A stretch of 64,000 nt of DNA from Chlamydiia bacterium (lineage in GTDB: Bacteria; Chlamydiota; Chlamydiia; Chlamydiales; Rhabdochlamydiaceae): positions 160,001 through 224,000 of the forward strand of contig CAWDOQ010000019.1 of NCBI GenBank assembly GCA_963804085.1. The letters run 5' to 3'. Shown here piece after piece: positions 38,039 to 38,429 of this stretch. The notes below the pieces were generated by a model. The model was not told the origin of the DNA. It worked only from the letters and a program-made list of their open reading frames with translations, and did no database searches. Made by a program: the position numbers and the translations under genes. Numbering within the stretch: the first letter of the stretch is position 1; the number at the start of each line of letters is the position of its first letter.

Positions 38039-38104
38039 TATGCCCGTGCGTGCCCGAATTAATCCGGATCGGGCAAAGGCACGGGCATGGGCATGGGCAC
38101 GTTT
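38039..38104. repeat. Hairpin element, family A, immediately 3' of the NHLP gene
   Basis: tgcccgtgcgtgcccgaattaatccggatcgggcaaaggcacgggcatgggcatgggcacgt. Confidence 0.85.
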
Positions 38105-38429
38105 ACTGGCAAAGATGCGCTTGGGTCCAAGTCCAACACGGTGCGGTATGGGCCATGTCTGTGGCATTACCTGCGCCAGCCGCGAATTTTTCCAGTTCTT
38201 GGTCCGACATTTCTTCTGAGCGAGCCACACAGACTGGTAGGATAAACGTGTGGATCTTTTGTGTATCTTCAACGACGCGCACTTCAAACTGTCCTTGGAG
38301 ATCATATCCCATCTCTTTGAATGCAGCTTTTGGATTTTTCAACAGTTTTTGTTTGTATTGCGGGTCTTTCCACGCACGCGCGATAATTTTTGCGCGAAAT
38401 TTTTCAAAGTCTTGGGGTTTCTTTGCCAT
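38103..38429 (-). CDS. NHLP (nitrile hydratase-like leader peptide) RiPP precursor, 108 aa
   Basis: KIIARAWKDPQYKQKLLKNPKAAF...VRVVEDT...FILP...EMSDQELEKFAAG leader signature, followed by a short Cys/Thr/Trp core. Confidence 0.88.
   Translation of the reverse strand: MAKKPQDFEKFRAKIIARAWKDPQYKQKLLKNPKAAFKEMGYDLQGQFEVRVVEDTQKIHTFILPVCVARSEEMSDQELEKFAAGAGNATDMAHTAPCWTWTQAHLCQ

Follow-up and report, generated by a model that had tools for sequence, protein, structure and literature searches.

A 64,000-bp stretch of a chlamydial genome assembly (GCA_963804085.1, contig CAWDOQ010000019.1, here C19, positions 160001-224000), which we call the window, encodes at 38103-38429 on the minus strand the precursor of a ribosomally made, post-translationally modified peptide (RiPP) with a nitrile hydratase-like leader peptide (NHLP). 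We propose that this gene is one of seven substrates of a class II lanthipeptide system that resembles the prochlorosin systems in combining one synthetase with dispersed substrates, and put the probability of this reading at roughly three in four. The original prediction, made from the window alone, described the gene as an orphan. That description is true only within the window. The genome, assembled to 2.13 Mb in 24 contigs and 91% complete, has seven NHLP paralogs, a lanthipeptide synthetase (LanM) and an NHLP-specific export cassette, so that the search suggested with the prediction, for paralogous precursors, a LanM and a C39-type ATP-binding cassette (ABC) exporter, recovered all three (seven precursors, one LanM and one export set).

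The open reading frame (ORF) at 38103-38429 (P0001) comprises 108 codons and a stop. Its translation holds both the IIARAWKDP..KQKLLKNPKAA signature and the ELEKFAAG site, and the leader, the cleavage site and the composition of the 23-residue core are exactly as first described. The NCBIfam model TIGR03793 (leader_NHLP) matches with 72.5 bits (E 1.9e-20, curated cut-off 50.9), aligning residues 9-85 to profile positions 3-77 of 77. The leader comprises residues 1-85 (38175-38429, minus strand) and ends in the double-glycine-type site ..ELEKFAAG, as delimited by alignment and by pN/pS. Residues 86-108 (38106-38174, minus strand) form the core, AGNATDMAHTAPCWTWTQAHLCQ, which contains four Thr (positions 5, 10, 15 and 17), two Cys (13 and 22), two Trp (14 and 16) and two His. 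Each Cys is preceded N-terminally by a Thr, a composition capable of forming (methyl)lanthionine. The longest ORF begins with TTG at 38483; the ATG at 38429 agrees with the starts of the paralogs and follows, 7 nt further on, a Shine-Dalgarno-like AAGGA that can be read directly in the sequence (38437-38441, minus strand). The Pfam model NHase_alpha also matches (49.4 bits, cut-off 27.2), over residues 12-64. This likeness to nitrile hydratase is limited to profile positions 41-93 of 184, the part that NHLP leaders reuse, which argues against a small nitrile-hydratase-like protein that is not a RiPP. The gene is a genuine NHLP-leader RiPP precursor.

Across the genome, TIGR03793 gave eight matches, seven of them above the cut-off and distributed over five contigs (C2, C12, C17, C22 and, with three, C19). 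All seven are intact ORFs of 102-114 amino acids (aa), and five of them, including that of the window, stand alone among housekeeping genes. The leaders of the paralogs are 40-52% identical to the window leader, and the similarity ends at a conserved (A/G)(G/A) column, past which the cores of 17-23 aa are hypervariable and cannot be aligned with each other. In an alignment of the seven paralogs with five homologs, family-wide similarity likewise ends at the predicted boundary between leader and core. Five of the seven cores combine Cys with Ser or Thr, one has Ser/Thr without Cys, and one has none of these residues. Between the window gene and its paralogs, pN (nonsynonymous) in the leader region is 0.24-0.40 and pS (synonymous) is 0.61-0.92; among all paralogous leaders the values are 0.21-0.45 and 0.61-0.97, the latter at or near saturation. 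The low pN set against near-saturated pS indicates that the copies are old and have long stayed protein-coding. Among 5.8 billion proteins searched there were seven other homologs, at most 61% identical and alike in the leader only, with unrelated cores; among them, none shares the window core AGNATDMAHTAPCWTWTQAHLCQ.

Where, then, is the enzyme that would modify the core? A Pfam scan of the window (57 + 4 ORFs) found no LanM, YcaO, radical-SAM (S-adenosylmethionine) or C39 domain in the 64 kb, which bears out the earlier statement that neither a maturase nor an exporter lies nearby, and all genome-wide matches to these families fall outside the window. There is one LanM locus, C19:75636-78516 on the minus strand, which is on the same contig as the window precursor and 119.6 kb from it. 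It carries the domains DUF4135 (308 bits) and LANC_like (200 bits) and consists of two ORFs, of 460 and 502 aa, that cover TIGR03897 positions 3-428 (384 bits) and 448-931 (378 bits). The two halves are colinear with the intact 957-aa LanM of a relative of the same family (G013, whose LanM locus is 100% identical to LNES01000003.1 of ‘Chlamydiae bacterium Ga0074140’), to which they show 58% and 55% identity, no part being absent. They retain the GFSHG, WCHG and LCCG motifs. The zinc-ligand motif of the cyclase is CCG rather than CHG (LCCGECGK), as it is in three aligned relatives. According to the available text of PMC10027976, CCG-type LanMs (ProcM/SyncM type) are substrate-tolerant and serve many genome-scattered precursors.

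This LanM is the only recognized RiPP maturase of the genome. YcaO (PF02624) gave no match at E ≤ 1 in the 91% complete genome, nor were SPASM, PqqD or LanB domains found there, and none of the eight Radical_SAM genes adjoins any of the seven precursors. Of the two chemistries first suggested by the Thr/Cys content of the core, a lanthipeptide thus gains support from the LanM and an azole peptide loses it with the lack of a YcaO. The proposal of modification in trans is supported, the sole maturase being some 120 kb away; the suggested radical-SAM cyclophane on the WxW motif is not, and the proposed search for YcaO and radical-SAM proteins with SPASM or RiPP-recognition (RRE) domains came back empty. 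NHLP leaders serve several enzyme classes, as noted in the available text of PMC2887384, and a maturase could be unassembled in a genome that is 91% complete. Nevertheless, with no YcaO, SPASM or PqqD and all radical-SAM genes distant from the precursors, we regard other chemistry (a YcaO-made azoline or azole, a proteusin-type radical-SAM epimerase or a radical-SAM cyclophane), together with the non-RiPP protein considered above, as very improbable.

Two genes beside the LanM are possible tailoring enzymes. One, at C19:78574-79899 (plus strand) between LanM and the adjacent precursor, encodes a 441-aa FAD_binding_3-type flavoprotein; the other, at C19:74185-74793 (plus strand) on the other side of LanM, encodes a 202-aa SAM methyltransferase, and a methyltransferase likewise adjoins LanM in locus L050 of a Chlamydiales metagenome-assembled genome (MAG). 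For P0009, an FAD protein beside LanM, a halogenase role is unsupported: its likeness to group-A flavin monooxygenases is limited to their Rossmann portion, with a best E of 0.0056.

The export set lies on contig C22 (65766-74114, minus strand) and comprises a TolC-like outer-membrane efflux protein, an HlyD protein, a C39 peptidase/ABC protein (ABC1) and a second ABC protein (ABC2). The NHLP-specific models all match within C22:65766-72490: TIGR03794 (NHLP HlyD) with 185 bits (cut-off 156), TIGR03797 (second ABC) with 725 bits (cut-off 709), and TIGR03796 (C39 peptidase/ABC) with 334 and 558 bits in two pieces. A further NHLP precursor is divergent from the exporter and 85 nt from it. The same three-gene export set was tied to NHLPs by phylogenetic profiling in the available text of Haft et al. 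(PMC2887384).

These components suggest a route from gene to product. The 85-residue NHLP leader would dock the prepeptide on the single LanM, whose kinase/lyase domain would phosphorylate Thr residues of the core and eliminate to dehydrobutyrine. The CCG-type zinc cyclase domain would then add Cys13 and Cys22 to form two methyllanthionine rings, most simply, and without overlap, one from Thr10 to Cys13 (TAPC) and one to Cys22 from Thr17 or Thr15. Cleavage after ..FAAG would fall to the C39 domain of the NHLP-type exporter, and the peptide would leave through the ABC1/ABC2/HlyD/TolC-like apparatus. The action of LanM on the window precursor, like the ring pattern, the site of cleavage and the route of export, we infer from what is known of the families concerned.

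So, is this a functioning pathway with the window gene among its substrates? A number of observations weigh against it. The window precursor has no physical linkage to LanM, a search for expression data on it found none, and the two cores without Cys are incapable of lanthionine formation. LanM lies in two overlapping frames, with the break in a run of nine adenines (A9) at ~C19:77170, where one frame continues as ..LDKEIQKKRAQ.. until it meets a stop and the other gives KKKELKLLASLLIEPGLEHL... ABC1 is also in two frames, of 300 and 430 aa (TIGR03796 positions 1-282 and 282-709); four nucleotides stand there in place of the one codon expected, i.e., a single extra base outside any homopolymer, and both pieces are 74% identical to the G013 ortholog. 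ABC1 is in one frame in all four relatives that score above the cut-off, and their LanMs are whole. Within the window, where 41 of 57 ORFs have a Pfam match, the sole visibly split gene is a sodium:solute symporter in three pieces. A frameshift signature occurs at 171 of 21,310 random genome positions (0.8%) and in 3 of 39 sense-strand runs of A9 or longer, LanM being one of the three. Two breaks in one pathway, where broken genes are otherwise uncommon, hint at real decay.

The gene could accordingly be a relic of a decaying pathway, in which both frameshifts are real and reflect recent inactivation, the precursors are short and have not yet been hit, and the peptide is unmodified, unexported or not made. 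The breaks strike the two long key genes (LanM and the C39-ABC gene), both of which are whole in relatives. Each gene is interrupted once only and is otherwise 55-74% identical to intact orthologs and free of stops, as expected for recent events, and the assembly is not rich in indels. The split symporter and a split glycoside hydrolase, described below, would be other pseudogenes of the same genome. Against this, the seven precursors, ABC2, HlyD and the TolC-like gene are all intact, and the LanM break falls in an A9 run, a site of sequencing error and of reversible slippage. Runs of this type are the classic place for both, and transcriptional slippage at poly(A) rescues such genes in insect endosymbionts. 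On balance, breaks in the two longest genes of the pathway look more like relaxed selection than chance, and we lean towards at least one of the two being real. A pathway already dead on both counts is nonetheless rather unlikely, and that this strain makes the mature product, with the pathway still yielding, falls a little short of an even chance. The original prediction had been made to depend on a maturase and an exporter elsewhere in the genome and on expression of the gene; the maturase and exporter exist, but both are frameshifted in this assembly, and the prediction passes only half of this test.

Metagenomic contigs from four sequencing runs were compared with the LanM locus, numbered here along locus L012, and none spans the A9 site (L012 ~7134-7170). 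Contigs of a ~93%-similar soil relative cover L012 1-5623 and 12679-16000 and nothing of the stretch between, which holds the LanM, flavoprotein, precursor and ABBA-fold/FAD genes; with no contig joining the two sides, this is no evidence either way. A second run contributed short near-identical contigs, including one for L012 8752-8937. The C-terminal half of LanM found no related locus among genome contigs, and the N-terminal half found one locus among metagenome contigs that is only 41% identical and is hence no second copy of the species.

The genome carries a modest load of broken genes. In the symporter (PF00474; window 40226-41674, minus strand) the frame changes several times, leaving three ORFs (profile positions 1-74, 105-248 and 289-406); it is either a pseudogene or a local assembly problem. 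By the LanM locus, a split glycoside hydrolase family 3 gene (C19:72577-74200, L012 2577-4200) reads as two ORFs, of 337 and 225 aa, which would share one frame without a base at L012:3494 that a ~93%-similar soil metagenome contig lacks.

Three other precursors of the genome have a neighbor of a family for which there is no Pfam or NCBIfam model, and which we call the ABBA family after its predicted fold. The genome has exactly three copies, all beside NHLP precursors: an ORF of 338 aa (C17:163321-164337, minus strand), 67 nt upstream of the precursor on C17, one of 364 aa (C12:22921-24015, minus strand), 143 nt downstream of the precursor on C12, and the N-terminal ~350 aa of a 740-aa protein (C19:80276-82498, minus strand) that also bears a VAO-type FAD domain and is convergent with the precursor next to LanM. 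A 366-aa member occurs in the Chlamydiales MAG (L050:2507-3604), between a LanM and a pair consisting of an NHLP precursor and a LanM. Among 41 relatives (including the window genome), the family is confined to the three whose LanM coverage is full-length (the window genome, G013 and G014). The six members in these genomes each lie within ~170 nt of an NHLP match, and Tyr or Trp is present in all seven cores adjacent to ABBA-family genes.

The relationship to prenyltransferases is structural. An AlphaFold2 model built with 100 sequences (pLDDT 93.1, pTM 0.91) shows five helix-helix-strand-strand repeats, i.e., a PT-barrel, and among the Foldseek matches listed (ranks 1-50) all are ABBA aromatic prenyltransferases, with E values of 4e-8 to 5e-5. 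By sequence, the link is made by language-model features only (scores 0.88-0.92). None of 100 family members matches PF11468, PF11991 or PF19156 at E ≤ 1, an hhalign comparison to one PTase_Orf2 protein gave a probability of 0.3%, a profile search of the Protein Data Bank gave no match, and word-based searches returned 3-4 proteins, with uninformative cluster names. PF11991 itself found no match in 81 Streptomycetaceae genomes. Eight positions never vary across the 100 sequences (E53, D62, D127, P138, R190, K313, K325 and Y327). The family is large, with 2,348 representatives at E ≤ 1e-3, and 6 of 23 members scanned carry a fused partner domain (FAD_binding_4, 2OG-Fe(II) oxygenase, sulfotransferase or squalene-cyclase-like). 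The genome also encodes two polyprenyl synthetases. A precedent is MppC of Moorena producens, a leader-dependent ABBA lanthipeptide prenyltransferase that, once a WxW core has been cyclized by LanM, attaches a geranyl group to its second Trp (PMC12715784, December 2025).

Judging from the modeled fold, the chlamydial ABBA-fold genes are likely tailoring prenyltransferases dedicated to neighboring precursors. We extend this tentatively to a combinatorial lanthipeptide system in which leader-dependent ABBA-fold peptide prenyltransferases beside individual precursors would give prenylated ring peptides, with the WxW core of the window perhaps a further substrate. Prenylation of the window precursor itself is only a possibility. 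The window peptide might be, also or instead, a substrate of the ABBA-fold proteins, which would act in trans through the shared leader on Trp14 or Trp16 of CWTWT. We consider this improbable: no ABBA-fold gene lies near the window precursor, the 240-aa neighbor is unrelated, the close spacing in six of six cases from three genomes points to dedicated pairs rather than action in trans, and prenyl transfer by these proteins is deduced from fold alone. The reading that we prefer for the window gene remains that of a LanM substrate.

The flanks of the precursor are rich in repeats. From the stop codon on, a G+C-rich hairpin (38036-38108, minus strand; -33 kcal/mol, z -3.6 by RNA folding) without a following T-run may mark the transcript end or act as a stabilizer. 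The hairpin belongs to a dispersed family of palindromic repeats, with 83 blastn matches across the genome. Such repeats, with CGTGCCCG-type units, lie in intergenic DNA at window 37045-37175 and 38036-38108 and at ~80-100 other genome sites, one of which (C22:70992-71111) falls within the operon of the NHLP exporter. Another dispersed element, ~90 nt long, forms an inverted pair that brackets the precursor (repeat-search arms 37894-37988 and 38596-38689). Over 37913-37988 and 38596-38671 the arms are 76 nt long and 89% complementary, and they are longer via a further pair. The genome has ~10 further copies of the element, which is not peculiar to precursors. A mobile cassette bounded by the 76-nt inverted repeat was considered and rejected, the element being dispersed and genome repeats flanking only two of the seven precursors. 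Upstream of the precursor, on the same strand, are tRNA-Asp (38780-38854) and tRNA-Val (38873-38945). No sigma-70-like promoter was found in 37800-38800 or between the tRNAs and the precursor, and a shared transcript start is possible. Neither Pfam nor NCBIfam matches the neighboring 240-aa ORF (37163-37885), which is also unlike the ABBA family.

That the host is chlamydial, as first supposed, is right. It is of the same family as G013, and the Pfam scan found type III secretion genes in the window, among them one with a gatekeeper domain of the CopN type and one for a chaperone of the CesT type. A run of these at 9827-16927 (minus strand) encodes a CesT-like chaperone, a CopN/HrpJ-type gatekeeper, a Fic/DUF4172 protein, SctV (FHIPEP, 710 aa) and SctU. 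Elsewhere in the window are a 366-aa DDE_Tnp_1 transposase (49466-50563, minus strand) and a 187-aa FAD synthetase ORF (20534-21094, minus strand) in which the FAD_syn domain was seen alone, without the flavokinase part; this may be a truncated or a separate gene.

How widespread are such systems among relatives? Among the 41 genomes compared, LanM scores above the cut-off in 4 and NHLP in 9. G013 and G014, both of the same family, have intact LanMs with 12 and 7 NHLP matches, respectively. In a 400-genome sample of the phylum, LanM is above the cut-off in 14 genomes and reaches E ≤ 1e-40 in 19, in 14 of 212 genera. Several chlamydial genomes (G088, G095, G249, G278, G323 and G034) also encode stand-alone proteins of ~500-540 aa that match only the N-terminal (dehydratase) half of LanM. 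In a quick IQ-TREE phylogeny of the cyclase half, the six LanMs labelled as chlamydial group together in an eight-row clade (SH-aLRT 99), whose two remaining rows are of unnamed origin. The LanMs of the window genome and of Ga0074140 are sisters (99), the sister group (98) being a Stigonema/Iningainema pair. Outside the chlamydial clade, identity to the Ga0074140 LanM, used as query, is 23-35%.

Chlamydiae are seen as streamlined intracellular parasites, and their secondary metabolite clusters are known only from genome-mining tables, with no product isolated. The original prediction held a modified peptide to be unusual for this lineage, a view that is weakened, since antiSMASH tables list class I and II lanthipeptide clusters in Chlamydiae, including one in a family-level relative. 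Biosynthetic gene clusters are widespread in Chlamydiae according to the main text of Dharamshi et al. (2022), whose Data S10 gives lanthipeptide-class-ii for Ga0074140 (which the supplement assigns to Simkaniales, Rhabdochlamydiaceae, and to a water treatment plant as its source) and class-i for a further seven genomes. For Endochlamydia hydrae, a paper of 2026 predicts a ‘proteusin’ cluster, and Chlamydia is absent from the main text of Walker et al. (2020). Lanthipeptide clusters in Chlamydiae are thus already recorded at the genome-mining level, and our literature search turned up no paper whose main text deals with a chlamydial lanthipeptide, and none on such a system, its scattered precursors or a product.

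Among the closest known systems is the class II cluster of Ga0074140, which belongs to the same GTDB family, has the closest LanM (55-58% identity) and shares multiple NHLP precursors and ABBA-fold genes beside precursors. It differs in that its LanM is intact and 9 of its 12 NHLP matches lie within 21 kb of LanM, whereas the precursors here are dispersed and two genes are broken. It is known from an antiSMASH table entry alone, with no product. The single frameshifts in synthetase and exporter of the window genome may offer a snapshot of pathway loss. In Nostoc PCC 7120, N. punctiforme and Azospirillum B510, NHLP precursors, LanM and an NHLM exporter are combined, recognized by the same precursor and exporter hidden Markov models (Haft, Basu and Mitchell 2010). 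As far as the available text of that paper describes them, these systems share the Gly-Gly-type leader end and the short hypervariable core, with some cores lacking Cys, but their precursors are placed beside LanM or the transporter, while five of the seven stand alone here.

The ABBA-fold genes are most readily compared with MppC (PMC12715784), which likewise has the ABBA fold and is encoded together with a LanM and precursors with long leaders. However, its precursor MppE has a Nif11-like leader, and the chlamydial family matches no Pfam prenyltransferase model (0 of 100 members) and occurs beside single precursors away from LanM. These genes point to a large uncharacterized enzyme family, may extend leader-dependent lanthipeptide prenylation, and are of interest for peptide lipidation chemistry.

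In operation, the parallel is with the prochlorosins (ProcA/ProcM of Prochlorococcus MIT9313) and SyncM, which, in the available text of PMC10027976, similarly combine one CCG-type LanM with conserved long leaders, unrelated cores and scattered genes. The cyanobacterial systems use a Nif11-type leader and 29-79 precursors in a marine cyanobacterium, whereas the present one has an NHLP leader (TIGR03793) and seven precursors in a chlamydia-related bacterium, with LanM and exporter frameshifted in this assembly. The window system is therefore not of the ProcA family, although prochlorosin-like in operation. Given such an architecture, ‘orphan’ NHLP genes need to be judged at the scale of the genome, and the combination of one tolerant synthetase with scattered substrates, best known from the prochlorosins, would extend beyond the cyanobacteria.

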